DNA of 64,000 nucleotides, from the NCBI GenBank assembly GCA_934277435.1, contig CAKQUE010000001.1, forward strand, positions 385,957 through 449,956, given 5' to 3'. This document shows positions 7,888 to 59,141 of the stretch, piece by piece. This DNA is from an uncultured Alphaproteobacteria bacterium (lineage in GTDB: Bacteria; Pseudomonadota; Alphaproteobacteria; RF32; CAG-239). Below the pieces are notes generated by a model. That model made no database searches, was not told where the DNA came from, and was given only the letters and a program-made list of their open reading frames with translations. A program made the translations under genes and the position numbers. The stretch's first letter is position 1. Every line of letters starts with the position of its first letter.

Positions 7888-7900
7888 GTTTATGATATTT

Positions 7901-10765: not shown

Positions 10766-10902
10766 TTTACATTCCCCTTGATTTACGTTTATTTAGTGCC
10801 ATTTTATACTTTTTTCAAATTTTTGTCAATTTTTTTCTAACGCAGAGGCAGCTTGCAAAAAAATAAAAACGCCACAATGTTTTACTCTGTTTAAGTATTC
10901 AG

Positions 10903-17888: not shown

Positions 17889-19424
17889 ATGCTTAGAAAA
17901 ATTATTTCTGTTCGCGGAATTTTGACCTTGCTGTTGTTATTGTCGGTTGTAGCTGCCGCAGCGGCTACATATTATAAGATTGTTTATTGGGGATTCAGTT
18001 TCCGTCCGCAGGAACGTACAGATGTGTGGACGGTAGATGCTCATGTTTCATTTAAGCCGACAGGTGACCCGATAGAAGTTTCGCTTTCTACACCGCGAAT
18101 CAGCAAAGAATATAAAATTTTGAGCGCCGATGTGGTGGCTCCGGGGTATGAAGTTAATACCGATGAAAAAAATCATCGTGTGATAATGAAGTCTGCCGCT
18201 CGTGTTGTAAAGCAAGATGTTTATTACCGTATTATGATTTATGATAATGAAGATACCAGTGGTAAGGAAGTCAGCGATAGACCTGCTGATGTAAAAATTC
18301 GCTATGATGATGAACAGCAAGAAGAAATGGTGAAAGCCATTTGGACTTTGGCCGAGGCTAAAGATGGCGAAACCAAGGCTCAGCGTTTAATTTCCGTTTT
18401 GAATGAGCAGCCGTTGGCGCCTGAGGTAGATTCATTTTTACCGGTACAGAAAAATCCGCAGATTATGGCGGAAAAAATTATTTTTTTATTGAATGCTAAA
18501 AAAATTCCGGCTCGTGTGGTGCGCGGAGTTAAACTTAGTGAAAATAAAAGAGCCACCGGCGCCGATTTAATGGTTGAAGCCTATGAAGGTTCTAAATGGA
18601 AAATCTATGATATTAATACCGGAAAATCAGGCTTGCCGAAAAGCTTTGTGATTTTTCAACGCGGTGGAAATTCTCTTTTAGACGTTGCCGGCGGCTATGA
18701 TTCCAAAGTTAAGTTTTCGGTTATAAAATCGGTTGTTTCTTCATTTAAAATGGCTGGCAGCCGCGCTAAATATGAAAACAGCCGCTGGTTTGACTTTACG
18801 ATTTATAATTTACCGTCTTTGGAACAGAACACTTTGAAGTGGTTGATGATTTTTCCTTTGGGGATTTTATTGATTGTGCTGATGCGTAACGTTATTGGTA
18901 TTCAAACTATGGGTACGTTTACGCCAATGTTGATTTCTATGTCTTTGGTTAAAACCGGATTTCTCCCAGGGTTGGTGTGTTTTGGGCTGATTATCGGAAT
19001 CGGTTTGTTAATCCGCACCATGCTGACACGCTTGAATTTGTTGCTGGTACCAAGAATTTCATCGGTGGTTATCTGCGTGATTTTAATTATGCAGATGCTG
19101 ACGATTATGGGTTACCAATATAACTTCAGCATTGCTTCTTCAGCCGTGTTTTTCCCGATTATTATTACGGCGTGGATTATTGAACGCGCGTCTATCACTT
19201 GGGAAGAAGAAGGCGTTAAAAACGCAGTTCGTCAGATAGTAAACAGTTTGTTTGTGGCGATTGTAACATATGGTGTTATTAGCAACGAATATATCCGCCA
19301 TATTATGTTTGCTTTCAACGAGTGGAATTTGGTGATTTTGTTTGTGGTAATGCTTTTGGGTACATATACTGGTTATCGTTTAACGGAACTGAAAAGATTC
19401 GCGCCGGTAGCAAGGGGGAAATAA
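17889..19424 (+). CDS. Periplasmic transglutaminase-like domain fused to a 7TM membrane domain
   Basis: Signal/anchor sequence, a soluble region of about 300 aa, then seven predicted hydrophobic helices. Tightly linked to the flanking genes. Confidence 0.6.
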   Translation: MLRKIISVRGILTLLLLLSVVAAAAATYYKIVYWGFSFRPQERTDVWTVDAHVSFKPTGDPIEVSLSTPRISKEYKILSADVVAPGYEVNTDEKNHRVIMKSAARVVKQDVYYRIMIYDNEDTSGKEVSDRPADVKIRYDDEQQEEMVKAIWTLAEAKDGETKAQRLISVLNEQPLAPEVDSFLPVQKNPQIMAEKIIFLLNAKKIPARVVRGVKLSENKRATGADLMVEAYEGSKWKIYDINTGKSGLPKSFVIFQRGGNSLLDVAGGYDSKVKFSVIKSVVSSFKMAGSRAKYENSRWFDFTIYNLPSLEQNTLKWLMIFPLGILLIVLMRNVIGIQTMGTFTPMLISMSLVKTGFLPGLVCFGLIIGIGLLIRTMLTRLNLLLVPRISSVVICVILIMQMLTIMGYQYNFSIASSAVFFPIIITAWIIERASITWEEEGVKNAVRQIVNSLFVAIVTYGVISNEYIRHIMFAFNEWNLVILFVVMLLGTYTGYRLTELKRFAPVARGK

Positions 19425-19425: not shown

Positions 19426-20376
19426 ATGTTTGATTTTCTCAAAGGTTTTGTATCGCCACAAAAATTGCGTCAAGCGGGCGTGTTGGGTATGAACGCACGC
19501 AACTATAATATTATTGCCAAATTTAACAAGCGTTCGCTTTATCCGCTGGTTGATGACAAGGTGCAGACTAAAAAGCTGGCAAACAGCATTGATATTAATA
19601 CTCCGCATATGATTGGTATTGTAGAACACCAATATGAAGTTAAAGACCTGCTGCAGCTGATTGAGGGACAGAGCGAGTTTGTGATAAAACCGGCTCATGG
19701 CAGTGAGGGTAAAGGTGTGCTGGTGGTGGCGCATTATGAAAACGGTATATTTACCACGCCGTCTGGAAAAGTATTGACCTTTAAAGAAGTGTATCAGCAT
19801 GTTTCAAATATTTTGAGCGGATTATATAGCTTGGGCGGACAATATGACGTGGCGCTGATTGAAGAACTGGTGCATTTTACCGATGTATTTAAAAACTTTA
19901 GTTACCAAGGGATTCCTGACGTACGCCTGATTGTTTATAAAGGCTATCCGGCTTTGGCAATGACCAGACTGGCAACCAAAGAATCTGCCGGCCGTGCTAA
20001 TTTGCACCAAGGAGCTGTCGGAGTCGGTTTGTCTATCAAAACCGGCAAAGCTGTGCAAGCCGTTAGCCACAATCTGCCGATTGCTTTACATCCCGATACC
20101 GGCGCCGATTTAATGCAGCTGCAAGTACCGCTATGGAAAGAACATCTGTTGATTGGAGCACAGGCGTATGAAATGACCGGACTTGGTTACTTGGGGGCGG
20201 ATATCGTTTTAGACCGCGACCGCGGACCGATGATGCTGGAATTAAACGCGCGTCCGGGGCTTTCTGTCCAGATTGCTAACGGTATTGGACTGCAGCCGAT
20301 TTTGCAAAAAATAGAAGAAACTTATCCAAAAGATTTGACGCCGCAAGAAAGAGTTGAGTTTGTCTTGAATAATTAA
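19426..20376 (+). CDS. RimK-related ATP-grasp alpha-L-glutamate-ligase-like protein
   Basis: ATP-grasp motifs (FVIKPAHGSEGKGVLV, LELNARPG). Start 2 nt after the upstream stop. Confidence 0.7.
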   Translation: MFDFLKGFVSPQKLRQAGVLGMNARNYNIIAKFNKRSLYPLVDDKVQTKKLANSIDINTPHMIGIVEHQYEVKDLLQLIEGQSEFVIKPAHGSEGKGVLVVAHYENGIFTTPSGKVLTFKEVYQHVSNILSGLYSLGGQYDVALIEELVHFTDVFKNFSYQGIPDVRLIVYKGYPALAMTRLATKESAGRANLHQGAVGVGLSIKTGKAVQAVSHNLPIALHPDTGADLMQLQVPLWKEHLLIGAQAYEMTGLGYLGADIVLDRDRGPMMLELNARPGLSVQIANGIGLQPILQKIEETYPKDLTPQERVEFVLNN

Positions 20377-33138: not shown

Positions 33139-33774
33139 CTAAAATGCCCAAATCGCAATGGCGCAAGTGTTGTTTGTACCGCAGTTGCATGCGTTGGCTA
33201 TAGTTGTTATGGGCATATCCTTATTATAGCAAATAGCAAAATCATTGTCTGAAGTTTCGCATTTTGCGGCTGAGGAATATTGGGTATAGCCTGAAATTTT
33301 AGAAGTACTGTTTGGATTGTTTGAACCGGAGGCAACCAAAATAGTTTTGGGACCGCCCAAACCTTTACTCAAAATTTGGATGCAAGCATCGCGGGACAGA
33401 GATTTCAGCTCAACTATAACACCTTTGTCTGTTGGGGTTAAACCATAAAGTTCTTTTGCCGAACCAACTCTAACTTCACCGCCGTAAACGTGAGTAACCT
33501 TGCCGCTGGAGTTAATCATTTCATCTGGAATAATTTTCATTTTTTTTGCAGATGTGTTATTTAAGCCGGTGTATTTACCGCCTTGACGCAACCCGATGCT
33601 TTTGGCGTTGGCAATAATAGTGCCGATTTGTTCAACAATGTTGTTAACCTTGTAGGCGTCCATGGCTTTACTGAAACCATTGATGCCGCCAACGCTCAGC
33701 ACGCCGATAATTGCCAGCACACCCAGCATTTCTATCATTGAACGACCTTGTTCAAATTTATTGATATTCATCAT
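33139..33774 (-). CDS. Type IV pilin (paralog 1)
   Basis: Prepilin leader ...FEQG^RSMIEMLGVLAIIGVLSVGGI with Glu at +5. C-terminal disulfide loop CNCGTNNTC. Confidence 0.8.
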   Translation of the reverse strand: MMNINKFEQGRSMIEMLGVLAIIGVLSVGGINGFSKAMDAYKVNNIVEQIGTIIANAKSIGLRQGGKYTGLNNTSAKKMKIIPDEMINSSGKVTHVYGGEVRVGSAKELYGLTPTDKGVIVELKSLSRDACIQILSKGLGGPKTILVASGSNNPNSTSKISGYTQYSSAAKCETSDNDFAICYNKDMPITTIANACNCGTNNTCAIAIWAF

Positions 33775-33789: not shown

Positions 33790-34398
33790 TTAGTTAAATT
33801 TTAAAGCTACAATACAAGAGTTAGAAGATGAGCAGTTGCAGCCTTTTGCTGCGTCAACAGGCGACATTGGGGTTTTCTCTGCCGGTAATATGGCATATTT
33901 TTTAGCAGCATTAATATCTCCAGCACCATCATCAAGTAAATCTGTCTTAAAATTTTGTTTGTCACCAACGCCAATCATTTGGAAAGTAGAACTCTTGGTG
34001 CCCCAATCTTGAGTGGCTAAATAAATACAAGCAACTTTAGGCAGTCCATTATAAGATATTATATATGACATATCTGTAGGTGTAATTTTTATATTTCCGT
34101 GGAATAGATTTGTTAAAGTTCCATTGCTAGCATTGGCAATCGCTTCTTTAGGAATAGCGCCGAATTTGATGGCAGCTTTGTTGTCTAATCCGTCATAAGA
34201 CGCAACTTCGGAACCGACAGCAGAAAGTTTTGCGGCAATAGCGTTGATTTGTTCATAAGTCTGGGTGATTTTATAACGTTCAAGCATTTGCGAAAAGGCG
34301 GCTATGCCCCCCACGCTTAAAACGCCGACAATCGCTAAAACACCAAGCATTTCTATCATAGAACGACCGGTCATATTCGATAATTTATTATAATTCAT
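33790..34398 (-). CDS. Type IV pilin (paralog 2)
   Basis: Same leader, G^RSMIEMLGVLAIVGVLSVGGI. C-terminal CNCSSSNSC. AGGAGG RBS before the ATG at 34398. Confidence 0.8.
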   Translation of the reverse strand: MNYNKLSNMTGRSMIEMLGVLAIVGVLSVGGIAAFSQMLERYKITQTYEQINAIAAKLSAVGSEVASYDGLDNKAAIKFGAIPKEAIANASNGTLTNLFHGNIKITPTDMSYIISYNGLPKVACIYLATQDWGTKSSTFQMIGVGDKQNFKTDLLDDGAGDINAAKKYAILPAEKTPMSPVDAAKGCNCSSSNSCIVALKFN

Positions 34399-34472
34399 AA
34401 TATCCTCCTGTTTGCTATTTTTGTAACACGTATGCAAGCTGGCGTCAAGCTATATTAAGGCGGAGATAAGTA

Positions 34473-35732
34473 TCAAATTTTTGGCAGCGTCACCATAAAT
34501 GTAGAGCCTTTGCCAAATTTGCTGTCCACAGTGATTTTGCCGTTATATTTTTGCACGATGTCTTTAGCCAGAGCCAAGCCCAGACCAAATCCTCCGCTTT
34601 GGCGATTGCGGCTTTTATCGGCGCGGTAAAAACGTTCAAATATATGGGGTATATCCTCATTTTTTATGCCGCGGCCTTGGTCAGAAACCTCAATTTTCAG
34701 ATTATGTTCATTTTCTGAAACCTTGAGGGAAATATCTTTGTCGCTGGGTGTGTATTTTAGCGCGTTGTCAAGCAATATGGTCAGCAAACGTTCCAAATGC
34801 TGTGCCGACATTTTTATTTTTGCTTTTGCGGGGCAAATCACTTTGATTGGATGTTGCCGTTCTTGATGAACCGTATTCAAACGTTCGGTCAAAGGTTTGA
34901 TGATGTTGGCAATATCGATTTCTGAAACCGCGGTGTTTTTAGTGTTTTCCAAACGAGTAAGTGCCAGTAGGTTTTCAATAAGTTCGGACATATTTTTGGT
35001 TTCATCGCGCATAACCTGCAGCGCCTTGGCATTTTGCGGCTGCTGTTGCAATATTTCGGTGTAAGTCAGCAATACGCTGAGAGGAGTTTTTAGCTCGTGT
35101 GAAGCGTCGGAAACAAATTCTTTTTGTTTGTTATAGGCCTCCTGCAAAGGTTTTACGGCGTTGTTAGAAATTAAATAAGCGGTGAGAATCGAGAGCAAGC
35201 ACAAAAGACCAACCAAAATTAAACCATAGCTTTTATAGCGGTGAGTGACATAAATATACGGTGTGACATTGAGCAAAGCAACTACTTGATATTTGTCGCC
35301 GCTGGGTTCATCAATCCAGCTTTGGGACAAGGCTACAAAGCGCCAGCGCTCGCCGTTGTTTTTGATTTTAACTGTTTTGATTTCTCCGTCTTTTCCCTGC
35401 CACTTGGTCATTTTTTGCGTCAGAATATTACCGGTTTCTCCGGCTGGTTGTTCTAAGCGGCGCATTTGTCCGTTTACAAAGCCATACGAGAAAAAATGCA
35501 GGGCGTTATTGCTTGCGGCGACGGCTATTCTTTCCGGCTTGAATGCGAGTTCGGCGGCTTCTTGCTTAAATTCAAAAACTTCTTCTTGCAAATAGTCATA
35601 AAGGCTTGAAGATATTACATTTTTAGAAATAATGCGATAGGTGGCGTATCCGCCCAAAAATATGAGCAAGGACACGCTGAATAATATTAGCGAATAGCGA
35701 ATTAAAAGTTTATGTTTTAAGGCGTCTATCAT
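34473..35732 (-). CDS. Sensor histidine kinase (PmrB/BasS-like)
   Basis: Two TM helices flanking a periplasmic domain. H-box HELKTPL. G-boxes in the HATPase_c domain. Confidence 0.85.
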   Translation of the reverse strand: MIDALKHKLLIRYSLILFSVSLLIFLGGYATYRIISKNVISSSLYDYLQEEVFEFKQEAAELAFKPERIAVAASNNALHFFSYGFVNGQMRRLEQPAGETGNILTQKMTKWQGKDGEIKTVKIKNNGERWRFVALSQSWIDEPSGDKYQVVALLNVTPYIYVTHRYKSYGLILVGLLCLLSILTAYLISNNAVKPLQEAYNKQKEFVSDASHELKTPLSVLLTYTEILQQQPQNAKALQVMRDETKNMSELIENLLALTRLENTKNTAVSEIDIANIIKPLTERLNTVHQERQHPIKVICPAKAKIKMSAQHLERLLTILLDNALKYTPSDKDISLKVSENEHNLKIEVSDQGRGIKNEDIPHIFERFYRADKSRNRQSGGFGLGLALAKDIVQKYNGKITVDSKFGKGSTFMVTLPKI

Positions 35733-36418
35733 TTGAGTTCCAGCATATATCCAATGTTTTTGAGCAGGTTTATTTGGATGTTATCTTGCCAGATTTTAAG
35801 CTTTTTGCGCAAATTGTAAATATAAGAATCCAAATTGGCGCTGCTGATTTCGGGATTATTGCCCCAAACTTTGTCAAAAAGTGTTTCGCGCAAAATAGTC
35901 TTATCATGGTTTACAAAAAGAATCTGCAATATTTTAAATTCGGTTTTAGAAAAATTAAGCGTTTTCTTGCCGTTGCTCAAGGTATTTTGCGCGCAATCCA
36001 AAACATAGCCGTCGGCTTCAAACAAGCTGTCGACATAAGGTTTGTTTTTGCGGCGCAGCACAGCGTGAATACGCGCTTTTAGCTCGCGGATTTCAAAAGG
36101 TTTGGTAATATAATCATCGGCCCCAACTTCCAGAGCCTGCACACAATCATCAAGCTCGGATTTGGCGGTTAAAAATATGATGCCGCCGCTGTAGTGTCCT
36201 TTTTTGATATCTCTAAGCCATTTGCATACTTCCAAACCAGAAAGCTCAGGCAGCATCCAATCCAAAAGCACCACATCATATTGCGAAGTTCCGTATTTAA
36301 TTTCTTCAATAGCTTCGGTTCCGGTTGTTGCCAAATTTACCTCATAACCGTCAATTTCAAGCAGGGTTTTGATGCCTTGTCCTAAATTAATATCGTCTTC
36401 AACCAATAAAATATGCAT
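35729..36418 (-). CDS. OmpR-family response regulator (PmrA/BasR-like)
   Basis: Receiver domain (LLVEDD...D...LDWMLP). Winged-helix C-terminus. Overlaps the kinase start. ATG at 36418 with a GGGAGA RBS. Confidence 0.85.
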   Translation of the reverse strand: MHILLVEDDINLGQGIKTLLEIDGYEVNLATTGTEAIEEIKYGTSQYDVVLLDWMLPELSGLEVCKWLRDIKKGHYSGGIIFLTAKSELDDCVQALEVGADDYITKPFEIRELKARIHAVLRRKNKPYVDSLFEADGYVLDCAQNTLSNGKKTLNFSKTEFKILQILFVNHDKTILRETLFDKVWGNNPEISSANLDSYIYNLRKKLKIWQDNIQINLLKNIGYMLELK

Positions 36419-36466
36419 AAAGTTATCTCCCAAAACATAGTTTATGTTGTTTTTATTAAGAACTCA

Positions 36467-40314: not shown

Positions 40315-40974
40315 TCAGTAGTATTTCCACAAAATAGAGCATGTGTTACCTTTATCGCAGTTGCATGCTTTAGCAGCTTGAGTAACTTGCATCGGTACAG
40401 CTAATGTTGTATTTCCTGGCATAGCTATAGAATCACCATCTTCTTTTTTTGCTGAGGCAGAGCCAATATAAACTGTATCCAAGCTGTCATCGCGTGCAGT
40501 TGGAGCAGCAGTTGCTGTGGCATTGCCTTTTACTTCGATAGCAATCAAACCAGAAGAATAGCCAGAACCCCAGTCGTTGGTAGCTAAAGTGATGCAAGCT
40601 TCACGTGATAATTGTGTGAATTCAATTACGAATGCTTTTGTGTCGCCATCCACAGTACTGTCAGCTTCATTGATAAATACAGGACCGTTAAACGCATTTG
40701 TCAGAGTTCCGGCAGTGGCATCTGTAACCAATTCGTCTGGTACAACACCCATAGATACAGCATTGGCATTGTCTAAATCTGTATAAGTATTTTGCTGAGC
40801 ATACAAGGTTTTGATGTTGGCAACCAACATAGAAACATTATCAGAAACTTTATTTGTTTTGAATTTGTTCATAGCTTTTGAATAGCCGGCAATACCACCA
40901 ACAGACAATACACCGATGATGGCCAATACACCCAGCATTTCAATCATGGAACGACCAGATTCATTTACTCTCAT
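40315..40974 (-). CDS. Type IV pilin (paralog 3)
   Basis: Leader MRVNESG^RSMIEMLGVLAIIGVLSVGGI. C-terminal CNCDKGNTC. AGGAGA RBS. Confidence 0.8.
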   Translation of the reverse strand: MRVNESGRSMIEMLGVLAIIGVLSVGGIAGYSKAMNKFKTNKVSDNVSMLVANIKTLYAQQNTYTDLDNANAVSMGVVPDELVTDATAGTLTNAFNGPVFINEADSTVDGDTKAFVIEFTQLSREACITLATNDWGSGYSSGLIAIEVKGNATATAAPTARDDSLDTVYIGSASAKKEDGDSIAMPGNTTLAVPMQVTQAAKACNCDKGNTCSILWKYY

Positions 40975-44486: not shown

Positions 44487-44903
44487 ATGAGCATAGCTAA
44501 CAATTTTAGAACCGTGTTAAAATACGCTCAGAATAAGGAGTGTATGATGGTTGTAGCTGATTCTGACTATATTGTTTTATTGGGTAGTAAAATTGCCAGA
44601 TTGCGTAAAATGCAAGGTTTGAACCAGTTTGAATTTGCTGATAAATGCGGTAAAATGGTTAATACTATTTCTAAAATTGAAAGAGGTATTGGCGATCCGC
44701 GCTTGTCTACACTGATTAATATTGCCGAAGCTTTGAATATTTCAGTAACAGAGCTTTTGGATAGTCATTTTATTAGTCCGGCTATGAGCAGAATGACTGG
44801 TGCAGAAAATGTGGATTCTGCCATTGATGGTCTTTTGTTGCAGTGTGATGATGAAACTAAAGCTGTTGTATTGTCATTGCTGCAGCTGTTGGTGAAAAAA
44901 TAA
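44487..44903 (+). CDS. XRE-family helix-turn-helix transcriptional regulator
   Basis: HTH_3 pattern (LRKMQGLNQFEFADKCGKMVNTISKIERG). The real start is probably an internal Met. Confidence 0.65.
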   Translation: MSIANNFRTVLKYAQNKECMMVVADSDYIVLLGSKIARLRKMQGLNQFEFADKCGKMVNTISKIERGIGDPRLSTLINIAEALNISVTELLDSHFISPAMSRMTGAENVDSAIDGLLLQCDDETKAVVLSLLQLLVKK

Positions 44904-44965
44904 TCAAAGCAATTAATTTTTTTATAACTTTTTTACTCTGTCCCCAACTTTAACGATGAACCAGC

Positions 44966-45242
44966 TTGTGTCAAACCCGCTTTTTCGCGGCTTCTTATCC
45001 CTTGATACTTCACCAACAAAAAAAAGCCACCATAAAGGTGGCTTTACTGTTGGTGAGCTCGGTGGGATTACTCCACTTCGTTTCGTTCACTGCGCTCATA
45101 GGCATTGCCTACCGGCACACTCCCGTGCGCCTTTCGCTTGTGTCAAACCCGCTTTTTCGCGGCTTCTTAGCCCTTGATACTTCACCAACAAAAAAAGCCA
45201 CCATAAAGGTGGCTTTACTGTTGGTGAGCTCGGTGGGATTCG
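44966..45242. repeat. Tandem direct repeat (2 x ~102 bp) containing the tRNA-Lys 3' end plus flank
   Basis: 44966..45068 and 45141..45242 are near-identical. Each ends in tggtgagctcggtgggatt (tRNA 3' end) and carries the hairpin aaagccacc-ataa-ggtggcttt. Confidence 0.85.
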
Positions 45243-45297
45243 AACCCGCGACCCTTTGATTAAAAGTCAAATGCTCTACCGACTGAGCTACGAACTC
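45222..45297 (-). tRNA. tRNA-Lys (anticodon TTT)
   Basis: Hand-folded. Acceptor GAGUUCG/CGAGCUC. Anticodon loop CUUUUAA. T-loop UUCGAAU. CCA encoded. Confidence 0.85.
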
Positions 45298-45451
45298 GCT
45301 TAACGAGTATGCTTATATTAGATAAAATTATGGAAGTCAATAGAAAAAATAAAAAAAGTTAAAAAAAATGAATTTGGTGTTTATTTATTAAGATTTATAT
45401 GTTAGTATTTCATAAAATTTGATGAAAACTTTTGTTTTGTAGAGGTTATGT

Positions 45452-45772
45452 ATGACTATTAGCAATGAAATTGGGCAAAAAGGCAGATATAGTATTTTGC
45501 AAAATGCTAAAGGTGAGATTATGTTGATGATGGATAGCCGCGCCGGTGGTCCGGAAAATCCGCGCTTTATTTATGATGGCGGAGAAAAGGCTTTGCTTTA
45601 TCGCTCTCAGGAAAGTTCTGTTGCGTTCAATAACATTGATAAAGACGCACGTTTGCCATTGAAAGCTGTTTCGGAAATTTTGGTTGTCGAAATTGAAAAT
45701 GATGATGTTGAACGTGAATATATTGTTCCTGTTCGTTTGGTTAAAAACGTTCAAAGTCTAATCATTTCTTAG
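45452..45772 (+). CDS. Hypothetical small soluble protein
   Basis: 106-aa ORF immediately upstream of the NuoL-like gene. It is not NuoK-like, since it is not hydrophobic. Confidence 0.45.
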   Translation: MTISNEIGQKGRYSILQNAKGEIMLMMDSRAGGPENPRFIYDGGEKALLYRSQESSVAFNNIDKDARLPLKAVSEILVVEIENDDVEREYIVPVRLVKNVQSLIIS

Positions 45773-45788
45773 TTGCTGCAGGCTCAAA

Positions 45789-47474
45789 ATGATTGCAGAT
45801 ACGACATTTCTGTTAATTGTTATGGCCGTTTTGAGCAGCTTGAAGGTTGGAGTAAAATCAGACAAGTTTATCTCTTGGCTGATTTTTCTGTTTGTAGCAG
45901 GTATTTTTGTATATTTTCTGCAACATAGCCATGTGACTGAAACTACGGTGTTTTCTTTTGTTTGGAATAGTTCGCCAAGCGGAAATATTATGGTCGATAT
46001 TGTTTCAAACTCATATAATTGTCAGCTGATTTTTCCGTTTTTTTTGATGACGTTAATGGCTATCGGCTATAATAATGTCTTCCGCTATGAGGAGCGGCGC
46101 GGGCTTTTTGACGCCGTTATGCTGTTTAATTTAACGGCTTTGATAATGATGATTACCAGCAACAATTTAGTGCAATTGCTTTCTGGGCTTTTTGTTGTGG
46201 ATATTATGGCTTTGCTGATTATAAAAGATGTCGAAAAATCAAAATATTACGCTACATTTAATTTAATTGCCGATATGATGTTGTTTACGGTTTTGGCCGT
46301 GGTGAATTGTCAGTTAGAATCGTTGGATTTGCGGCAAATTATTGAATATAACAAAATTGGATTTCATCAAGATTTTGTAGCTATTGTTGGGTTGTCGGCG
46401 GTATTTATAAAATTTGGCTTGGTGCCTTTTCATGGCAGCATGCTGCGGTTGAAAGACATTCGTTATCATCGTTTGCAGAATGTTTTGTTTTTGACTTCTC
46501 CAGCTTCGGCTTTGATATTGCTGCAAAAATTTTATCCTTTATGGCAAAGTTCTTTATATTTTTTACCAGTTTTACAGGCCGGTTGTGTTTTAGGTTTAGT
46601 GTGGGGATTGGTGCTTTTTGCCATGGGAGAAAGCCTAAAGCTCAAGACAATCTATTGGCAAATGTTTTTTAACTCGATTTTAGTTTTGTTGTTAGCCGAT
46701 AAAAAGGTTGTATGGTCGGAAAATTTTTCAATTTTGCTGGTATGTCAGTATTTGTGCATCAGTTTATGGTATTTTTTGTATTATAATGCGAATCGGTGTG
46801 CAAGTTTATTAAAGCTAAAAAGCTACTGTGTACAAAGACATCTATCCTGCTATATTGTGTGGTGTATATTTCTTTTGGTTTGGACTGCCGAAATTGTGCA
46901 GATATTTTATCTAAAAACTGAAATTAATGGCTATTTGGCAATTTTATGGGCTGTGCCGGCTTGGGTGATGGCTCAGGTGTTTCATTTGTTTTGTGTTAAC
47001 AACAAATCTTCGGAAGCCAAAAAAATAATGGCTCAGCCTAAATTGATGTTTTGGCTGTTGTCGTTTGGGGTTGTTGCTTTGGTTTTGGTAACCACCAAAC
47101 CTATATTTTTCAATATAGATATAAAATTTGTTTGTTTGCCGTTGTTTGTTTTTGTTGTTGCTACATTTATGCCGGTTGCAAACTTTATGTATAAGATATA
47201 TGCCAACAATTGGATTCAAGAAAATGATGTGTTTCAGCGAATATATCATTTTATGATTGTGGAGCCAATACAATGGTGCGGGCGCGTGCTGGCGGTTTTG
47301 ATAGATAGAATGCTGGTAGAAAAAATGATTGTCGGCGCTGCTTCTTTGGGCTTGCAAGGCGCGGTTAGACTGTTTAGAAATATCCATTATAATCGGTTTT
47401 GGGGTGGAATCATTATGTTGCTGCTTTTGGTGCTGTTATTGACGTTGTCTTTCCACAATGGGAGAATAAACTAA
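45789..47474 (+). CDS. Complex I antiporter-like subunit, NuoL-like (highly divergent)
   Basis: Polytopic membrane protein of 561 aa. Gene order L-M-N-birA-rnj is typical of the end of the alphaproteobacterial nuo operon. Sequence conservation is weak. Confidence 0.5.
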   Translation: MIADTTFLLIVMAVLSSLKVGVKSDKFISWLIFLFVAGIFVYFLQHSHVTETTVFSFVWNSSPSGNIMVDIVSNSYNCQLIFPFFLMTLMAIGYNNVFRYEERRGLFDAVMLFNLTALIMMITSNNLVQLLSGLFVVDIMALLIIKDVEKSKYYATFNLIADMMLFTVLAVVNCQLESLDLRQIIEYNKIGFHQDFVAIVGLSAVFIKFGLVPFHGSMLRLKDIRYHRLQNVLFLTSPASALILLQKFYPLWQSSLYFLPVLQAGCVLGLVWGLVLFAMGESLKLKTIYWQMFFNSILVLLLADKKVVWSENFSILLVCQYLCISLWYFLYYNANRCASLLKLKSYCVQRHLSCYIVWCIFLLVWTAEIVQIFYLKTEINGYLAILWAVPAWVMAQVFHLFCVNNKSSEAKKIMAQPKLMFWLLSFGVVALVLVTTKPIFFNIDIKFVCLPLFVFVVATFMPVANFMYKIYANNWIQENDVFQRIYHFMIVEPIQWCGRVLAVLIDRMLVEKMIVGAASLGLQGAVRLFRNIHYNRFWGGIIMLLLLVLLLTLSFHNGRIN

Positions 47475-48883
47475 TGCCGGAATTAATATTGGTTATGATG
47501 TTGTTGCCGTTAGTTGGGTGCTTATTTGTGTTGTCGGCACCAGACAACAAGACAAATGCCTATAGTGTGGCATTTTTTACGTTAGTTACCAATCTTATTG
47601 TTATTTTGCGCTTGTTTTCGTTACTGGACATTAATTCTTCTGCGCTATCATTTGGTTTTGAATATCAGTGGCTGGAAAACTACAAGCTTAATTTATATTT
47701 TGGTGTCGATGCGTTTTCTTTGTTATTGATTATGGCTGTTTATTTGGCTTTGATTATCGGTTTGGCCGGACTAAATCAAAATGCCCGAAAAAATAAAATG
47801 CTGCTGTTGCTGATGCTATATTTTACCAGCAACATAACGGCGTTTTTTACTGCCGGAGATTTGCTTTCATTCTATGTGTTTTTTGCAGGTATGTTGATAC
47901 CGTTGTTTATGTTGATAGGTTATTGCGGCAATGCCAAAAAAATCCAAATTTTATATCGATTTTTTATGTATAATTTTGTTGGAATTTTATTTTTATTGGC
48001 CGCCTCTCTGATTTTATTGAAATTTTATCACGGCAATGTCCGGCTAGAAGAAATTGCGCTGGTAGACATGGCGCCGCGAGTCGGAATTTTAGTGTGGTCG
48101 GTTGTTTGTCTGGCTTTTATTTCCCGCATTCCGGTTTGGCCGTTTCACTCATGGATTGCTTCAGTAAGTATAAATATTAAGAATCCGCTGGTTTATATTA
48201 TGGTTGATATAATGCCGCTAACCGGATTGTATGGTTTTGCGCGGTTTTGGCCTTTGGCTGTGCCTGATAGTATCAGCCTATATCTGCCCTTTATTGAGAT
48301 TTTTACGGTTTTGACTATGTTGTTTTTAGCCCTTATAGGCTTAGTCAGCCGAGAATTTATGTATAAGCTGTTTTCATATTCCACTGTTTATTATTTGTTC
48401 TTTTTGTTGGCGGTTATTTTGCCGGTTGACACGCTGAAAATGAATATAGCGTATTCATTATTTATATTTTTGATAGTTACGTCATCTTTGGCGGTTTTGG
48501 ATTTGCAATTTGAAGAAAAATGTCGGCAGCAGACTTGCGGATATCGTGGAATTTTAGCTTATATGCCGCGTTTTTCTTTTGTGATGTCATTTTTTGTGTT
48601 GACTGCGGTTGGTTTGCCGATATCCTCTTTGTTTTGGAATAATTTTGTGCTGATTTCCGAAATTTTTAGAGAGAGTTTTGGCGTAGGTTTGTGGGTTATG
48701 GCGGCTTTGTTATTGGTGGCGCTGGGTTTGTTGCATGAATTATATGTGATGCGTGATTTGAAACAGCATGAAACTAAGGCGGAAAACATCGAAGATTTGT
48801 CGCCTAGACAGCAAATATTCTTGGCTGGAGTTGTTGCAATTTTGTTTCTGTCGTTTTTTAATCCTCTGTGGTTTATTTTTTAG
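47474..48883 (+). CDS. Complex I antiporter-like subunit, NuoM-like (divergent)
   Basis: The segment FFAGMLIPLFMLIGYCG resembles the NuoM TM5 region. ATG overlaps the upstream stop (TAATG). Confidence 0.55.
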   Translation: MPELILVMMLLPLVGCLFVLSAPDNKTNAYSVAFFTLVTNLIVILRLFSLLDINSSALSFGFEYQWLENYKLNLYFGVDAFSLLLIMAVYLALIIGLAGLNQNARKNKMLLLLMLYFTSNITAFFTAGDLLSFYVFFAGMLIPLFMLIGYCGNAKKIQILYRFFMYNFVGILFLLAASLILLKFYHGNVRLEEIALVDMAPRVGILVWSVVCLAFISRIPVWPFHSWIASVSINIKNPLVYIMVDIMPLTGLYGFARFWPLAVPDSISLYLPFIEIFTVLTMLFLALIGLVSREFMYKLFSYSTVYYLFFLLAVILPVDTLKMNIAYSLFIFLIVTSSLAVLDLQFEEKCRQQTCGYRGILAYMPRFSFVMSFFVLTAVGLPISSLFWNNFVLISEIFRESFGVGLWVMAALLLVALGLLHELYVMRDLKQHETKAENIEDLSPRQQIFLAGVVAILFLSFFNPLWFIF

Positions 48884-48892
48884 GAGAAAAAA

Positions 48893-50317
48893 ATGGTCGA
48901 AAATATATTATATCTTTCTCCGGTATGGATTTTAGGACTCGGCGTTTTGACGCTTTTGTTTTGTTATGCGCGGGAAAGTTCGGTTAGCTTGGTTTTTCGG
49001 CTGGCAAAAATTTTTGCATCTTTAGGCTGGGCTACGGCCGTAATTTTTTATAACCGTTCGGCTTTTCCTGAAATTATGAGCGCCAACGCCTATACGATTT
49101 TATTTATAAATCTAATGTTTTTTGCAATGTGTGCTACATTGTTCCTGTCTAAAAAGTGGTATGCTAGTATGAATATGACAGGGGCGCTGTTTTGCTGTGG
49201 ATTGCTGCTATCCGGTGTTTCTGGCGTTTTGTTGGTAACTTCGCATAATTTGGGATTGACGGCCGCCGCGGTGTTATTGCTGTTATTTTCAAATTATTTG
49301 CTTTTTATACATGCGGACAAGCGAAAAGATATTTATTTAAGCAGCCAGCTTTATGCTTTTTCAGCGGTTGTGGCGGCAGTATTGCTGATGGTTTGTGTTG
49401 GATTTTTATATTGGCAGAATCCAAGTTTAGACTATGATGTGCTGAGTCATTATTTTGAAAACGGAGCCGAAAAAAACGTATTGTTTTTAATGGCAGCGGC
49501 TTTGGTTTTGATTTTTGTATTTTTATTGGGTTTGTCGCCTTTGCATTTTTGGTATACTGAAACCACCGGACAAATCGTGCTGCCCGTATTCAGCTATTTT
49601 ACATTAGTTCCGGTGGGCATCTGCTGGGCGGCTTTTATAAAACTCAACGCCCACGTGCTGTCGGCTATGGAATCAAGTTTGACTTTGTTATATCAGGGAT
49701 TGGCCTTGTTATCATTATTTATGGGAGCTATTGGGGCTTGCAGCGGTAAAAATATCCGCAAAATTTTTGCTTTTGGAGTGGTCTATCAACAGGGAATAGT
49801 GTTTTTGATTTTGCAAAGACTAACACCGGATGCATTAAATACGGCTTTTATATATATGTTTGTATATTTATTGGCCATGTATGGTGTATGCGCTTGTCTA
49901 TATGGGCTTAAAAATAAAGGAGAATATTTGTTTATGCTCAGTGACTTTGAAGGAGCTGCTTTTCGGCGTCCATATATTGCGGCGACGATGACCATATTTT
50001 TGTTTTCGCTGATTGGTTTTCCGCCGTTTTTGGGATTTTTAGGGCTTTTTTCAGTTGTAAACGATTTAATTCAACATCATAATATTTTTCAGCTGGGATT
50101 ATTGTTTATAGCTTTACTGATTTTATCTTACGCATATTTGCAAATAATCAAAACTATGTATTTTGAAAACAGCAATATCGCTTTTGATCGAGCCGATAGG
50201 GGAATTTATCTGGCAATTATGCTGACCGTACTGCTGATGATTTTGATAATGTTGCAGCCGCATTATTTGATACAAGATTTGGAATGGATTTTGGAAGGTG
50301 CTTTGACATGGCAATAG
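48893..50317 (+). CDS. Complex I antiporter-like subunit, NuoN-like (divergent)
   Basis: About 14 predicted TM helices. Position directly before birA. GGAG RBS. Confidence 0.5.
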   Translation: MVENILYLSPVWILGLGVLTLLFCYARESSVSLVFRLAKIFASLGWATAVIFYNRSAFPEIMSANAYTILFINLMFFAMCATLFLSKKWYASMNMTGALFCCGLLLSGVSGVLLVTSHNLGLTAAAVLLLLFSNYLLFIHADKRKDIYLSSQLYAFSAVVAAVLLMVCVGFLYWQNPSLDYDVLSHYFENGAEKNVLFLMAAALVLIFVFLLGLSPLHFWYTETTGQIVLPVFSYFTLVPVGICWAAFIKLNAHVLSAMESSLTLLYQGLALLSLFMGAIGACSGKNIRKIFAFGVVYQQGIVFLILQRLTPDALNTAFIYMFVYLLAMYGVCACLYGLKNKGEYLFMLSDFEGAAFRRPYIAATMTIFLFSLIGFPPFLGFLGLFSVVNDLIQHHNIFQLGLLFIALLILSYAYLQIIKTMYFENSNIAFDRADRGIYLAIMLTVLLMILIMLQPHYLIQDLEWILEGALTWQ

Positions 50318-51045
50318 CAGATAAATGGGGTTATTATTTATTTGATGAAGTTGGCAGTACTAATGATGTTATAAAAGATTATTGTGGCGAATCCGGCAAA
50401 TATGTGGCGGTGGTTGCGGAATCTCAAACTTTGGGACGCGGCAGATTGGGGCGCAATTGGAAAAGTCCAAAAGGAAATTTATTTTTTTCTTTGGCGTTTG
50501 AGTATGAATTGCAACGGGCTGGAGAATTGGCGTTTGCGGCTTCGCTGAGTCTGTTGCAGACGGTTAAAAAAATTGCTCCGTTTGCCGATATAAAATTGAA
50601 ATGGCCGAATGATGTGTTGTTAAATAATGCAAAAATGAGCGGAATTTTGCTTGAAAAAGGTCCTGAAAAGTATATGATTATCGGTATAGGCGTTAATGTG
50701 GCCGCCAGTCCGGAAATTGATAACGCCGTTTATAAGATTACATCACTGGCCGATGCGGGGATAAAAATAGAAGCGCTAAAGCTGTTGCGCCTGTTTATAG
50801 AAAGTTTTTCGCAGAATTTGAGCTTACTGCAAACTAATGGTTTTGCGGTTCTGCGCGAGGAATGGCTCGAAAATGCCAAAAATTTGGGGAAAGAAATTAC
50901 TGTTCGCCAAAGTGGCAAAGAAGAAAAAGGTATTTTTGCCGGAATAGATGAAAATGCCGCGTTGTTGTTAAAAACGCCTGCCGGTACAAAACGAATATTG
51001 GCGGGAGATGTGTTTTTTGAAGAGATGAATAAAAAAGATGAGTGA
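50308..51045 (+). CDS. birA: Biotin--[acetyl-CoA-carboxylase] ligase (group I, no DNA-binding domain)
   Basis: GRGRLGRNW...G motif. The ATG at 50308 has a GGAAGG RBS. Overlaps the NuoN-like end. Confidence 0.85.
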   Translation: MAIADKWGYYLFDEVGSTNDVIKDYCGESGKYVAVVAESQTLGRGRLGRNWKSPKGNLFFSLAFEYELQRAGELAFAASLSLLQTVKKIAPFADIKLKWPNDVLLNNAKMSGILLEKGPEKYMIIGIGVNVAASPEIDNAVYKITSLADAGIKIEALKLLRLFIESFSQNLSLLQTNGFAVLREEWLENAKNLGKEITVRQSGKEEKGIFAGIDENAALLLKTPAGTKRILAGDVFFEEMNKKDE

Positions 51046-52702
51046 ATTTAAAAAAGAAGGAATTTATTTTTTGCCTTTGGGCGGAGCCGATGAAATCGGG
51101 ATGAATATGTATATGTATGCGGTTGACGGCAAGATAATTGTGGTTGATGCCGGTTACGGCTTTTTATTGGACGATTATCCAGGAATGGAGTTGGCTTATG
51201 CTTCGCCGGAATTTTTGGACGCATATAAAGACGATATCGAAGGTTTGTTTATTACGCACGGGCATGAAGACCATTTGGGGGCTATCGCACAAATTTGGCC
51301 GCATTTGCAGTGTCCGGTTTATGCAATGGATTTTACTTTGGGATTGATTAAATCTCGTTTGGCGGAATTTAAAATGGAAGATGTAGTTCCATTGGTTTCG
51401 GTAAATCAGCAAAGAACAGTAGAGTTGCCTAATTTTAGCGTTGAGTTTATCTCAATTGCGCATTCGGTGCCGCAGACCTGTGCTTTGGCTATCCGCACAA
51501 AATACGGCAACATATTGCATGCAACCGATTGGCGTTTTGATGATGAGGCGCTTTCTATGCTGCCAACAGATTTTGACGCTCTAAAAAAACTTGCGGATGA
51601 AGGCGTTTCGATGTTGGTTTGCGATTCAACCAATATTATGGTGGATAAAAAATCACCGTCAGAAGCAGAAGTGCGCAAAAGTTTGATGGAAATTATTCCG
51701 CAAATTGAAGGTGGTTTGATTGTAACTTGTTTTGCGTCTAATCTGATGCGTTTAGAAAGTTTGATTTTGGCGGCCGACAAAGCCGGAAGAACTCCGGTGC
51801 TGTTGGGGCGTACATTAATTAATAATATAAAAATAGCCAAAGAATGCGGCTATTTACAAGATTTGCCGCCTGTTCACACTATGGAGGAAGCAAAGGATAT
51901 TCCAGCGGATAAAGCGCTTTATATTTGTACCGGTTCACAGGCAAATTATCGTAGCGCGTTGAGTATTATTGCAAACGGCGAAAGCAAATATATAAAGCTG
52001 GATAATTCGGATACGATTATTTTCTCGTCTAAGATGATTCCGGGAAATGAAGATAAAATCGAACGTATGCAAGATAAATTGGTAGCGCAGGGAGCAACAG
52101 TAATTACTGATGAAACTGAGTTGGTTCATACTTCTGGACACGCTGGCCGCGAAGATTTGAAACGTATGTATGATTTATTGAAACCGGCTGTGGTGCTACC
52201 GGTACATGGAGATAAAAAGTTTATTCGCGAACATAAGCGTTTTGCCTTGAGCTGCGGTATTAAAGAAGTTTTTTCGGCGCGTAATGGCGATATGTGTTTG
52301 CTGCACAACAATCATATTGAACTTTTGGAACAAGTTTTTAGCGATATTATTGGTTGGGATAGAAACCGTCCGGTTTCGCTTGGTTCTCAACTGATTAAAA
52401 ACCGCCGCCGTATAGCATTTAATTGCAGTATGTTTATCAGTGCCGTAATTAAAGATAAAAAGTTGCTGGACTTGCAGATGTCGTCTATTGATATTTTGGA
52501 AGAAAATGATTGGGATAAATTGGCTGACGAAATTTTGGCAACAGTTAAACCGCTGATAGAGAAAAAATTGCTTGAATGTGAAAATCATACGCAAATAGAA
52601 GATTTTATCCGCGGGCAGATTCGCCGCCGCGTTTTTGCGGCAACCGAGATTAAACCGGTGACATTGTTGCATGTGGCATTTTTGGATAATGAATCAGAAT
52701 AA
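51038..52702 (+). CDS. rnj: Ribonuclease J
   Basis: Metallo-beta-lactamase motif HGHEDHLGA, beta-CASP region, C-terminal domain. 554 aa. Confidence 0.9.
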   Translation: MSEFKKEGIYFLPLGGADEIGMNMYMYAVDGKIIVVDAGYGFLLDDYPGMELAYASPEFLDAYKDDIEGLFITHGHEDHLGAIAQIWPHLQCPVYAMDFTLGLIKSRLAEFKMEDVVPLVSVNQQRTVELPNFSVEFISIAHSVPQTCALAIRTKYGNILHATDWRFDDEALSMLPTDFDALKKLADEGVSMLVCDSTNIMVDKKSPSEAEVRKSLMEIIPQIEGGLIVTCFASNLMRLESLILAADKAGRTPVLLGRTLINNIKIAKECGYLQDLPPVHTMEEAKDIPADKALYICTGSQANYRSALSIIANGESKYIKLDNSDTIIFSSKMIPGNEDKIERMQDKLVAQGATVITDETELVHTSGHAGREDLKRMYDLLKPAVVLPVHGDKKFIREHKRFALSCGIKEVFSARNGDMCLLHNNHIELLEQVFSDIIGWDRNRPVSLGSQLIKNRRRIAFNCSMFISAVIKDKKLLDLQMSSIDILEENDWDKLADEILATVKPLIEKKLLECENHTQIEDFIRGQIRRRVFAATEIKPVTLLHVAFLDNESE

Positions 52703-52776
52703 ATAACATAATATATCATATAAGAATGATGAAAGACTGTGATTTTAAATCATGGTCTTTTTTTTATACAAAAGAC

Positions 52777-52803
52777 TTGACAAACAACCGGGGGGGGTAA
52801 ACT
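52777..52803 (+). promoter_or_regulatory. Candidate promoter with G8 homopolymer in the spacer (TTGACA-15-TAAACT)
   Basis: TTGACA at 52777-52782, then aacaaccgggggggg, then TAAACT. The G8 tract is at 52790-52797. Downstream are a GGAGAA RBS and the ATG at 52836. Confidence 0.4.
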
Positions 52804-52835
52804 GGAGGCGTGAACACTTTATAGGAGAAGTAATT

Positions 52836-53510
52836 ATGATTACCAATGCTGATGCAGAAAAAAAATTTACCTCAAACAATGTTATTGAAGCTGAGCCGAC
52901 GGGTATTCGCCGTGTGATTATTCCAGCTTATGGATTTGCTGGTGCAACTCCTCAAAAAAGACAGGAATGGGGAGCAGACGGACCTTTTATGGAAGATGTT
53001 CAAGGATATAAATTTAATAATCCCAAAGATAATGCTGACCAAATATTAAAAAAGAACGACGGAGTTCTTATTTGCTATGATGCTCCAGGGCGAGTAGATA
53101 AAATTAATAAATATCTAGAAGAAAATCCTAAAACATTTAAAGATGTAGTTCATTTGAAAAAATTCATTTCATTTATGCAACAAGAAACTGGCGATGTGTG
53201 GGATACTGACGTTAATTTTGCGGCCGGCTTAAAAAATGCTCCGGCTAAAGAAGATATTAAACCAGGCAAGGTGTTTACCGGCATAAAAGCAAAAGAAGCG
53301 GTTACAGCTTTTAGGGTAAAAGAAGGTGAACAGTTTGAAGGTGCAGAAGGCACGCCGCAAACTGCAGGTAAAGGTGGTGCCTATGTTATCAAAGATAAAA
53401 GCGGTATAAGAATGATTCAAGCGGCAGAATTTGCTAAGGCTTATACTGTGACCAAGGAACCGCAAAATAATATTAATACGCGTGTAAATTCTACATTGGA
53501 AAATAACTAA
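52836..53510 (+). CDS. Hypothetical protein
   Basis: 225-aa ORF with a good RBS. No recognised family. Confidence 0.5.
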   Translation: MITNADAEKKFTSNNVIEAEPTGIRRVIIPAYGFAGATPQKRQEWGADGPFMEDVQGYKFNNPKDNADQILKKNDGVLICYDAPGRVDKINKYLEENPKTFKDVVHLKKFISFMQQETGDVWDTDVNFAAGLKNAPAKEDIKPGKVFTGIKAKEAVTAFRVKEGEQFEGAEGTPQTAGKGGAYVIKDKSGIRMIQAAEFAKAYTVTKEPQNNINTRVNSTLENN

Positions 53511-57968: not shown

Positions 57969-59141
57969 ATGAATAGACGCGTTTTGAAACCTGCTCAGCT
58001 GAAAATAGAATTGGAAAAATGTTTGCATTGTGCGGCTAAGCCTTGCTTAAAAGCTTGTCCGGTGCATTGTTCGCCGTGTGACTTTATTGCCGCGGCAAAA
58101 AATGGCGAATGGCAAAAAGCGGCGGAGCTGATTGAAAATCAGAATCCATTGGCGCAAAGTTGTGGATTGATTTGTCCGGATAAGTTTTGCCAAAAAGCCT
58201 GTGTTAGAGCCAATTTGGATAAAGCTATAAAAATTCCGGCAGTGCAGGCGGCAATTATGCAAAAAGCGCGGGACGAAAATATGCCTTTAGCAAATGTAAC
58301 AAATCCAAACGGTCAAAAAGTGGCGGTTATTGGTTCTGGTCCTGCCGGTATTGGCGCCGCGGCGGTGCTGTTGCGGCAGGGTTTTTGTGTGACTATTTTG
58401 GAAAAAAGTAACCAAATCGGCGGAGCGCTTAATTTGATACCGGCAGAGCGGTTGCCACGTGAAGTTATTGCTGCGGATTGGAAAAGAATTGCAGCTAATC
58501 CAAACTTGACGGTAAAACTTAATACTTTGGCTGATGATTATGAAACTTTGCTGGAACAAGGTTTTGAGGCGGTTATTGTTGCGATTGGCGAGCAGACTAG
58601 ACGTATGCTTAATATCGCTGGCGAAGAACTTAGTGTTTCGTATGTGGAATATCTTAGCAATCCGCAAAAGTATCAGACCAATGGTAATGTGGCTGTCGTG
58701 GGCGGCGGTGAAGTGGCGCTCGATTGCGCTTTGACGGCTAAACGGCTTGGCGGAATGGTAGAAATGTTTGTGCGCCGAGGTTTGAGCAATATGCGCATGG
58801 GGTTGGACGATTATGCTGATTTGATTTCAAACGACATCAATGTTACCACCATGACCAGAGTTGCCAAAATAGAAAAGCAAAAAGAAAATTTATTGACAGC
58901 GTATACGATTAAAACTCGTTTTAACACTGACGGAAAATTAGAGGATATTCCAAACACGCAAACTGCGCGGCCGGATTTTTCTTTGATTGTTTTGGCTTTA
59001 GGCAGTAGCTGCCGCGAAAATAAGATAGATAATCCGCGCGTTATTTATGCCGGAGATTGCGTAAACGGCGGTTCAACAGCCGTTGAGGCGGTGGCTTCAG
59101 GTAAAGCGGCGGCACAGAAATTTATGGAACAAATAGCTTAG
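57969..59141 (+). CDS. GltD-family NAD(P)-dependent FAD oxidoreductase (glutamate synthase small-subunit-like)
   Basis: N-terminal Cys cluster region. Dinucleotide-binding VAVIGSGPAG and VAVVGGGEVALD motifs. Confidence 0.7.
   Translation: MNRRVLKPAQLKIELEKCLHCAAKPCLKACPVHCSPCDFIAAAKNGEWQKAAELIENQNPLAQSCGLICPDKFCQKACVRANLDKAIKIPAVQAAIMQKARDENMPLANVTNPNGQKVAVIGSGPAGIGAAAVLLRQGFCVTILEKSNQIGGALNLIPAERLPREVIAADWKRIAANPNLTVKLNTLADDYETLLEQGFEAVIVAIGEQTRRMLNIAGEELSVSYVEYLSNPQKYQTNGNVAVVGGGEVALDCALTAKRLGGMVEMFVRRGLSNMRMGLDDYADLISNDINVTTMTRVAKIEKQKENLLTAYTIKTRFNTDGKLEDIPNTQTARPDFSLIVLALGSSCRENKIDNPRVIYAGDCVNGGSTAVEAVASGKAAAQKFMEQIA

Follow-up and report, generated by a model that had tools for sequence, protein, structure and literature searches.

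A conserved operon of gut Alphaproteobacteria encoding diverged NuoL-, NuoM- and NuoN-like proteins: a putative relic of the complex I distal arm

Introduction

What becomes of the distal membrane arm of complex I when the genes for the rest of the complex no longer stand beside it? The question is raised by a locus of an uncultured alphaproteobacterium (metagenomic GenBank assembly GCA_934277435.1, contig CAKQUE010000001.1), of which a stretch of 64,000 nucleotides was analysed, hereafter “the window”. A first-pass annotation, made from the letters alone, had pointed there to three coupled genes for membrane proteins with the sizes and order of NuoL, NuoM and NuoN, followed by birA and the RNase J gene (rnj) and lacking nuoA-K upstream. 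It had proposed that the three genes were either decaying after a break-up of complex I or recruited to another function, Mrp- or Dab-like. We refer to the three proteins as L-like, M-like and N-like, and to the 106-residue protein encoded just before them as hyp106. On balance, the evidence assembled below makes us favour a different reading: the trio would be a functional remnant of the distal arm of complex I that has been put to new use and works with no redox or quinone module.

Descent of the three membrane proteins

The six genes of the operon are the following.

45452-45772, forward strand: hyp106 (106 aa), first gene of the six-gene operon
45789-47474, forward strand: L-like (561 aa), assigned as a diverged NuoL orthologue, with lateral helix and C-terminal transmembrane (TM) anchor
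47474-48883, forward strand: M-like (469 aa), assigned as NuoM orthologue; the start is the ATG at 47474
48893-50317, forward strand: N-like (474 aa), assigned as NuoN orthologue
50284-51045, forward strand: birA, biotin-protein ligase, the ancestral downstream neighbour of nuoN (TIGR00121, PF03099, PF02237)
51038-52702, forward strand: rnj, RNase J, the operon's final gene (TIGR00649, PF22505, PF07521)

The open reading frames (ORFs) of hyp106, L-like, N-like, birA and RNase J lie where the first-pass annotation had placed them. The identities of BirA (165 bits for TIGR00121, cut-off 83) and RNase J (366 bits for TIGR00649) are unambiguous.

The canonical locus of Rhodobacterales reads nuoG..H-I-..-J-K-L-M-N-birA-coaX-rnj, and a canonical contig of Geminicoccaceae reads nuoI-J-K-L-M-N-birA. 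Because the canonical order is J-K-L-M-N-birA(-coaX-rnj), the trio of the window occupies exactly the nuoL-nuoM-nuoN slot. Both loci agree with the earlier statement that L-M-N-birA-rnj follows the order of alphaproteobacterial nuo operons.

Profile comparisons assign each protein to the subunit expected from its position. The hidden Markov models (HMMs) built for the three families had the cognate subunit as their top match, with 172 bits for M-like on NuoM, 172 bits for N-like on NuoN and 23 bits for L-like on NuoL, and the M-like HMM did not exceed 17 bits on canonical NuoL or NuoN. M-like matches PF00361 (E 2.6e-23) and has TIGR01972 (NuoM) as its best NCBIfam model, at 165.1 bits, under the cut-off of 263.8. 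N-like also matches PF00361 (E 8e-23), its best NCBIfam model being TIGR01770 (NuoN) at 130.3 bits, under the cut-off of 332.6. Both align over their full length to the solved NuoM/ND4 and NuoN/ND2 chains.

The case of L-like is more delicate. The protein of the window has no match in Pfam or NCBIfam, and PF00361 is matched by a single one of 26 family members (E 2.5e-6). Neither the family HMM nor hhalign gave a significant result against E. coli NuoL alone; the homology becomes significant only via alphaproteobacterial NuoL and by profile-profile comparison. Positions 452-553 of the family profile align with residues 596-698 of Paracoccus NuoL, i.e. the lateral helix and TM16 (E 4.6e-5), and a C-terminal hydrophobic segment lies at 532-560. 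The core of L-like aligns by hhalign with the canonical NuoN profile (probability 83%, E 9e-6), K208 standing opposite the lysine of TM7. Position and best profile match taken together thus show L-, M- and N-like to be positional orthologues of nuoL, nuoM and nuoN.

Their divergence is stronger than that of normal complex I subunits, as the first-pass annotation had remarked. The M- and N-like proteins of the window are 24-25% identical to canonical sequences, compared with 56-61% between canonical orders, and L-like is essentially unalignable to canonical NuoL, compared with 47% between canonical orders. BirA of the window is 37-39% identical to canonical alphaproteobacterial BirA, and two canonical orders are 34% identical to each other. 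BirA and RNase J, encoded alongside in the operon, show no unusual divergence, so only L, M and N have evolved fast.

Loss and change of channel residues

To score the channel residues, the M- and N-like families were aligned to E. coli NuoM and NuoN and residue states were counted over 34 members. For L-like an ungapped motif alignment to E. coli NuoL was used, and invariance was read from a family alignment of 26 sequences. The states found are as follows.

M-like, E144 (TM5): Ala in 30 of 34, acidic in none
M-like, K234 (TM7): Arg in 34 of 34
M-like, K265 (TM8): Leu in 33 of 34
M-like, H322: Tyr
M-like, H348: Phe in 34 of 34
M-like, E407 (TM12): Asn in 34 of 34
N-like, E133, K217, K247 and K395: variable, mostly hydrophobic (34 members)
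L-like, NuoL E144 (TM5): invariant Phe135, with an invariant Asp138 at +3
L-like, NuoL K229 (TM7): retained as invariant Lys208
L-like, NuoL H254 (TM8): Leu244, invariant among the 26, with an invariant Lys247 at +3
L-like, Lys of TM12: absent

The M-like TM5 motif reads FFAGMLIPLF. Two independent alignments place its Ala at the site of a universally conserved Glu (E144 of E. coli NuoM), in accordance with the first-pass annotation, which had noted the lack of the expected acidic residue there. Aligned by phmmer to Arabidopsis Nad4 (7aqw_M), M-like shows these replacements again, except at H348. As a control, E133, K217, K247 and K395 are kept in all of the 67 nearest canonical NuoN/MrpD proteins. 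In NuoL, E144 and K229 are universally conserved and required for complex I activity (PMC4938563).

The first-pass annotation had named the conservation of the channel residues, scored after proper alignment, as the mark of an ordinary nuoLMN. They are not conserved in M and N, and L-like keeps only Lys-TM7, which argues that the trio is not ordinary nuoLMN. L-like also keeps the TM6 Asp of NuoL type, as D162. The four residues D138, D162, K208 and K247 are invariant and lie within predicted membrane segments.

In the most divergent loci (L042, L043, L046 and L047) the M-like protein retains the Glu of TM5, opposite the Arg of TM7, whereas the clade of the window has Ala or Thr at TM5. In the same four loci K265 and E407 are already gone and the N-like protein is already blank. 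Because these distant M-like proteins retain the TM5 Glu, the charge relay appears to have been dismantled stepwise, after nuoA-K had left the operon.

The 106-residue protein

The fourth protein, hyp106, is the best conserved of the membrane module when compared across loci with L, M and N. Its gene lies directly upstream of that of L-like in every locus with upstream sequence, the most distant ones included. Its homologues are restricted to the clade and are all at least 50% identical, and the full-length members carry no Pfam domain; hyp106 itself has no match in Pfam or NCBIfam. It is acidic (pI 4.97) and soluble, and contains no Cys, His or Trp. The single-sequence AlphaFold model was unusable, with a predicted local distance difference test score (pLDDT) of 37.5, and was replaced by an AlphaFold2 model built from an alignment. 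The latter is confident and beta-rich (pLDDT 84.4, predicted template modelling score 0.78), and Foldseek found no match to it in PDB or BFVD.

A derivation of hyp106 from nuoK or nuoJ was considered and rejected: it resembles none of the Nuo subunits, and no frame of 44900-45800 holds a remnant of nuoJ or nuoK. We regard hyp106 as a candidate new subunit or partner of the trio.

Distribution, conservation and selection

The L-like family was found in 35 species-representative genomes, all from uncultured Alphaproteobacteria of the human gut, the rumen and other animal guts. All 35 loci contain hyp106-L-M-N-birA-rnj as intact ORFs of near-constant length, with overlaps or gaps of at most 25 nt at most junctions. 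The arrangement extends to the most distant family members found, L042 being without rnj, and the related loci amount in total to about 45, from lineages down to 30% identical. An exhaustive search of 1.84 billion cluster representatives with the L-like profile returned 212 members at E<=1e-3. These are distinct 50%-identity clusters, and canonical NuoL was not reached. The N-like family stands equally apart: no member scores under 281 bits, and the next matches, canonical NuoN, reach at most 81 bits. Protein identity across loci is 60-94% for hyp106, 30-58% for L, 37-80% for M, 29-69% for N and 61-97% for rnj.

Database labels for these proteins are “hypothetical” or the generic “proton-conducting transporter membrane subunit”, and our literature search found no paper on the operon, the residue loss or the 106-aa protein; what comes closest is one accession given as “NuoN-like” in a supplementary table (PMC6431628). 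Two of the genomes that carry the operon (L006 and L009) are deposited as “Bacteroidaceae bacterium” and “uncultured Eubacteriales bacterium”, names that probably reflect mislabelled or contaminated bins. The distant locus L042 (GCA_964370255.1) also encodes, at 7570-10881 on the reverse strand, a 1103-aa product with LptF/LptG permease (PF03739) and LptD (PF04453) domains. It would be a fusion of the inner- and outer-membrane parts of lipopolysaccharide transport, or else a gene-calling artefact.

Selection was measured as the ratio of non-synonymous to synonymous substitution rates (dN/dS) by the Nei-Gojobori method, on close genome pairs with dS < 1. The values show purifying selection: L has a dN/dS of 0.06-0.13, M of 0.03-0.06, N of 0.04-0.09 and hyp106 of 0-0.05, as against 0.1-0.3 for birA and 0.02-0.03 for rnj. 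In no part of L does the ratio rise above 0.25; residues 311-470, the least conserved part of the protein, have a dN/dS of 0.05-0.25.

This second half of L-like also differs between close species. Relative to L009, L014 and L005, the protein identity of rnj is 96-97% and that of hyp106 92-94%, yet L-like is just 55% identical. Over 46500-47350 nucleotide identity slides to 0.41-0.59 across residues ~240-520, with no sharp borders. Recombination was considered as the source of this extra divergence and set aside, the identity falling gradually and the borders not being sharp; faster evolution of the second half is the simpler reading.

The search for nuoA-K

All E. coli Nuo subunits and alphaproteobacterial NuoH-K were used as tblastn queries. 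No nuoA-K was found in the 64-kb window or in the ~45 related loci and their flanking sequence (at most 10 kb), so that their absence upstream, noted in the first pass, holds across the family's loci. No respiratory gene was found elsewhere in the window either.

In the genome as a whole nuoA-K may also be absent. A published survey gives a similar picture for a near-complete metagenome-assembled genome (MAG) from the gut, “Azospirillum sp. CAG:239”: under complex I only NuoE-like, NuoF-like and one NuoN-like protein are entered, and no oxidases, bc1, complex II or quinone synthesis genes are listed (PMC6431628, Table S2). An [FeFe]-hydrogenase, PFO and PFL are listed for the same MAG (PMC6431628, Table S2; see also PMC4967309). 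This table is the picture expected here, and supports the absence of nuoA-K for a possibly related MAG. The NuoN-like protein of CAG:239 likewise belongs to an oxidase-free alphaproteobacterium of a host gut with fragments of complex I. It appears there as a bare accession (CDB52610), without analysis of operon, residues or a 106-aa partner (Degli Esposti et al. 2019, PMC6431628), and is at most a possible member of the present N-like family.

A relic of the distal arm, or a scaffold

The operon shares with the distal arm of complex I the gene order and the downstream birA and rnj, and L-like shares with NuoL the NuoL-specific lateral helix, the terminal TM anchor and Lys-TM7. It differs in that no nuoA-K adjoins, that a 106-aa soluble protein is always encoded directly upstream, and that M and N lack the charged residues of the central axis (M has an Arg at TM7) and L-like three out of the four. 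In addition L-like is shorter, at 561 aa, than canonical NuoL (613-717 aa).

These likenesses and differences suggest the following scenario. In an ancestor of uncultured host-associated Alphaproteobacteria (human gut, rumen), nuoA-K would have been removed from the nuo operon; nuoL, nuoM and nuoN would have been left in place before birA-rnj, and the new gene hyp106 would have taken the slot upstream of nuoL. The L-, M- and N-like proteins may still assemble in a row like that of complex I, held together by the lateral helix and C-terminal anchor of L-like. Since their central hydrophilic axis has been stripped of ionisable residues, M-like and N-like should be unable to act as canonical proton channels, and would serve as inert structural partners. 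Of the three, L-like alone may have retained the binding or conduction of an ion (H+ or Na+), because it keeps K208 and D162 and has the register-shifted D138 and K247. The acidic, cofactor-free hyp106 would then be a cytoplasmic partner or regulator of L-like. The relic would probably do a new job.

Several points weigh against this reading. The genes nuoA-K could sit elsewhere in the genome, the search having covered the window and the related loci, and the clade of the window may be a lineage other than CAG:239. The assembly of L, M and N and the docking of hyp106 are inferred. A half-channel of L-like without the Lys of TM12 has no obvious exit path, so that ion transport is by no means certain. 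Conservation is poor over the second half of L-like (residues ~311-470). Lastly, hyp106 may have nothing to do with the trio and simply be transcribed from the same promoter as an essential birA-rnj operon.

The main alternative retains the complex and drops the ion. L, M and N would act in the membrane solely as a structural scaffold, e.g. one that tethers hyp106 or other proteins, and would handle no ions; the conserved charges of L-like would serve folding or protein contacts. Such a role would suit M- and N-like proteins that have no ionisable axis and are rich in invariant aromatic residues, Gly and Pro of the kind expected under packing constraints, an L-like protein that lacks the Lys of TM12 and so has no canonical exit half-channel, and a module whose most constrained component is hyp106. 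However, the invariant charges D138, D162, K208 and K247 are costly in membrane segments unless they are used, and two of them, D138 and K247, lie one helical turn from the lost canonical residues, which gives the look of a rebuilt network. We consider the scaffold unlikely, perhaps one chance among several, and favour a residual binding or conduction of an ion by L-like that hyp106 may regulate or use.

A bolder extension of this preferred reading is possible, and we put it forward tentatively. Together, hyp106 and L/M/N might constitute an undescribed four-subunit membrane machine, with a new soluble protein, and no longer quinone chemistry, to drive or gate it. As a stand-alone descendant of the pumping arm it would be the first of its kind, with the relay discarded in two modules and rebuilt in a shifted register in the third (D138, D162, K208, K247).

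Other readings of the locus

The trio could instead be ordinary membrane-arm subunits, complex I being complete and its nuoA-K relocated, and its divergence reflecting fast evolution in a reduced, host-associated genome. Split nuo operons occur in other reduced alphaproteobacteria (Rickettsiales), and the positional and profile orthology to nuoL, nuoM and nuoN speaks for this explanation. Against it, Glu-TM5, Lys-TM7, Lys-TM8 and Lys/Glu-TM12, which complex I conserves universally and needs for its function, are gone in M and N, and the scores fall well under the NCBIfam cut-offs. BirA and RNase J are not unusually diverged, so the speed-up is limited to L, M and N. The published table for a gut alphaproteobacterial MAG has one NuoN-like protein and no quinone pathway (PMC6431628). 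We judge this reading, with the trio as ordinary nuoLMN, very unlikely.

The Mrp- or Dab-like recruitment suggested in the first pass, in which the antiporter-like modules would now serve an Mrp-type cation/proton antiporter or a Dab-type CO2-hydrating complex, fares worse still. Stand-alone PF00361 proteins outside complex I are usually of Mrp, Dab, Hyf or Mbh type, and N-like has weak secondary matches to MrpD models (78 bits, cut-off 542). But at every locus the operon and its flanks encode neither MrpB/C/E/F/G nor DabA (PF10070) nor any hydrogenase subunit, the top matches are NuoM and NuoN rather than MrpD, and the Lys/Glu residues kept in 67 of 67 canonical NuoN/MrpD proteins, which Mrp and Dab modules need, are lost here. 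This explanation is thus highly improbable.

The comparison with these systems is nevertheless instructive. Mrp (Mnh/Pha) places NuoL-like and NuoN/M-like modules side by side with no redox module, and MrpA has a lateral helix. The trio is likewise without a redox module, but MrpB, C, E, F and G and the conserved Glu/Lys are absent. The cyanobacterial CO2-uptake module NDH-1MS (NdhD3/NdhF3 with the soluble CupA/CupS) and DabA/DabB combine antiporter-like subunits with dedicated soluble partners on the cytoplasmic face. They offer a conceptual precedent for hyp106, by resemblance only: hyp106 has no sequence or fold match in the family and structure databases searched and no metal-binding Cys/His, no DabA lies near the operon, and the antiporter-like subunits of NDH-1MS and DabA/DabB retain their channel residues.

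The last explanation, that the trio consists of decaying remnants, pseudogenes in the making after the loss of complex I, could invoke the lost catalytic residues, an L-like protein that Pfam no longer recognises and its poorly conserved second half, but is excluded by the data: the ORFs are intact and of near-constant length in ~45 lineages down to 30% identical, the dN/dS of L/M/N is 0.03-0.13, below that of birA, and L-like forms 212 distinct 50%-identity clusters.

Operon layout and surroundings

The following features border the operon.

45222-45297, reverse strand: tRNA-Lys(UUU), divergent from the operon
45298-45451, forward strand: AT-rich intergenic region between tRNA-Lys and hyp106, presumed operon promoter
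52731-52761, forward strand: terminator-like hairpin 3' of rnj, a 14-pair stem followed by a T run (consensus match only)

The operon start was placed before hyp106 because the tRNA gene is divergent and the upstream content varies among the related loci. A promoter-like site at 45300-45328 fits at 9 of 12 positions (consensus match only). The junctions of the six genes measure 16, -1, 9, -34 and -8 nt, consistent with translational coupling. Thus the order and coupling of the three membrane genes given in the first pass stand, but not the start of the middle one. That gene most likely begins at the ATG at 47474 (469 aa), which overlaps the L-like stop by 1 nt and is the start in public gene calls. 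A 494-aa ORF opening with TTG at 47399 was considered as the middle gene and is probably not real, public calls using 47474. The 5' end of birA overlaps the 3' end of N-like; public gene calls start birA at a later ATG, about 50308.

The first-pass annotation had seen upstream of the trio a 106-aa hypothetical gene, tRNA-Lys and an att-like scar. The tRNA and the repeat are real; the 106-aa gene, conserved and beside L-like everywhere, is no bystander. The repeat is a tandem direct repeat of ~106 nt (44964-45069 and 45136-45240, 98-100% identical, 172-nt spacing), and either copy holds the last 19 nt of tRNA-Lys(UUU) and the downstream terminator hairpin (AAAGCCACC...GGTGGCTTT). The copies are just ~66 nt apart, which leaves no island between them; the structure resembles a local duplication, or else the scar left at a tRNA attachment site by the excision of an element. 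On the other side of the operon, right after the rnj terminator, lies a 252-aa ORF (52752-53510, forward strand), whose start is overlapped by the hairpin at 52731-52761. It belongs to no Pfam or NCBIfam family and was matched, among the fetched loci, only in the window's own assembly.

Elsewhere the 64-kb window holds ordinary chromosomal genes, among them dnaX, relA/spoT, rsmH, ftsI, tilS, kdsB, lpxK and waaA. A GltD/NfnB-like NAD(P)H oxidoreductase subunit with a PF14691 4Fe-4S domain and PF07992 is encoded at 57969-59141 (forward strand), and fits an anaerobic, ferredoxin-based metabolism. Three paralogous genes for PilS/bundlin-type (type IVb) pilins lie on the reverse strand (33139-33774, 33790-34437 and 40315-40974); two of them adjoin each other and a two-component system at 34473-36433. 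Such pilins are unusual for Alphaproteobacteria and may be linked to gut colonisation. At 17889-19424 (forward strand) an inactive-transglutaminase/7TM protein (PF14400 and PF14402) is encoded, followed at 19426-20376 (forward strand) by a sugar-transfer-associated ATP-grasp enzyme (PF14397). The pair is a conserved, functionally uncharacterised two-gene system.

Significance

It is still debated how complex I drives its antiporter-like subunits and which role the lateral helix has. If the four-subunit machine is real, it would be a natural experiment on antiporter-like subunits and lateral helix without an attached redox module. On the preferred reading the redox and quinone modules have disappeared, and most of the charge relay with them, yet the trio, the lateral helix and a new partner are under strong selection throughout the clade. 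If ions are still moved, a minimal, redox-free version of the machinery would have been isolated; if they are not, large antiporter-like proteins would have a second, non-pumping role. Moreover, hyp106 and the L-like family, labelled “hypothetical” in databases, gain a function-linked context.

The operon also records the dismantling of complex I toward an anaerobic lifestyle in an alphaproteobacterial lineage, which bears on how anaerobic mitochondria lose respiration. The four-subunit machine, if real, would give bacteria a counterpart of the partial remnants of complex I that anaerobic mitochondria-related organelles retain.

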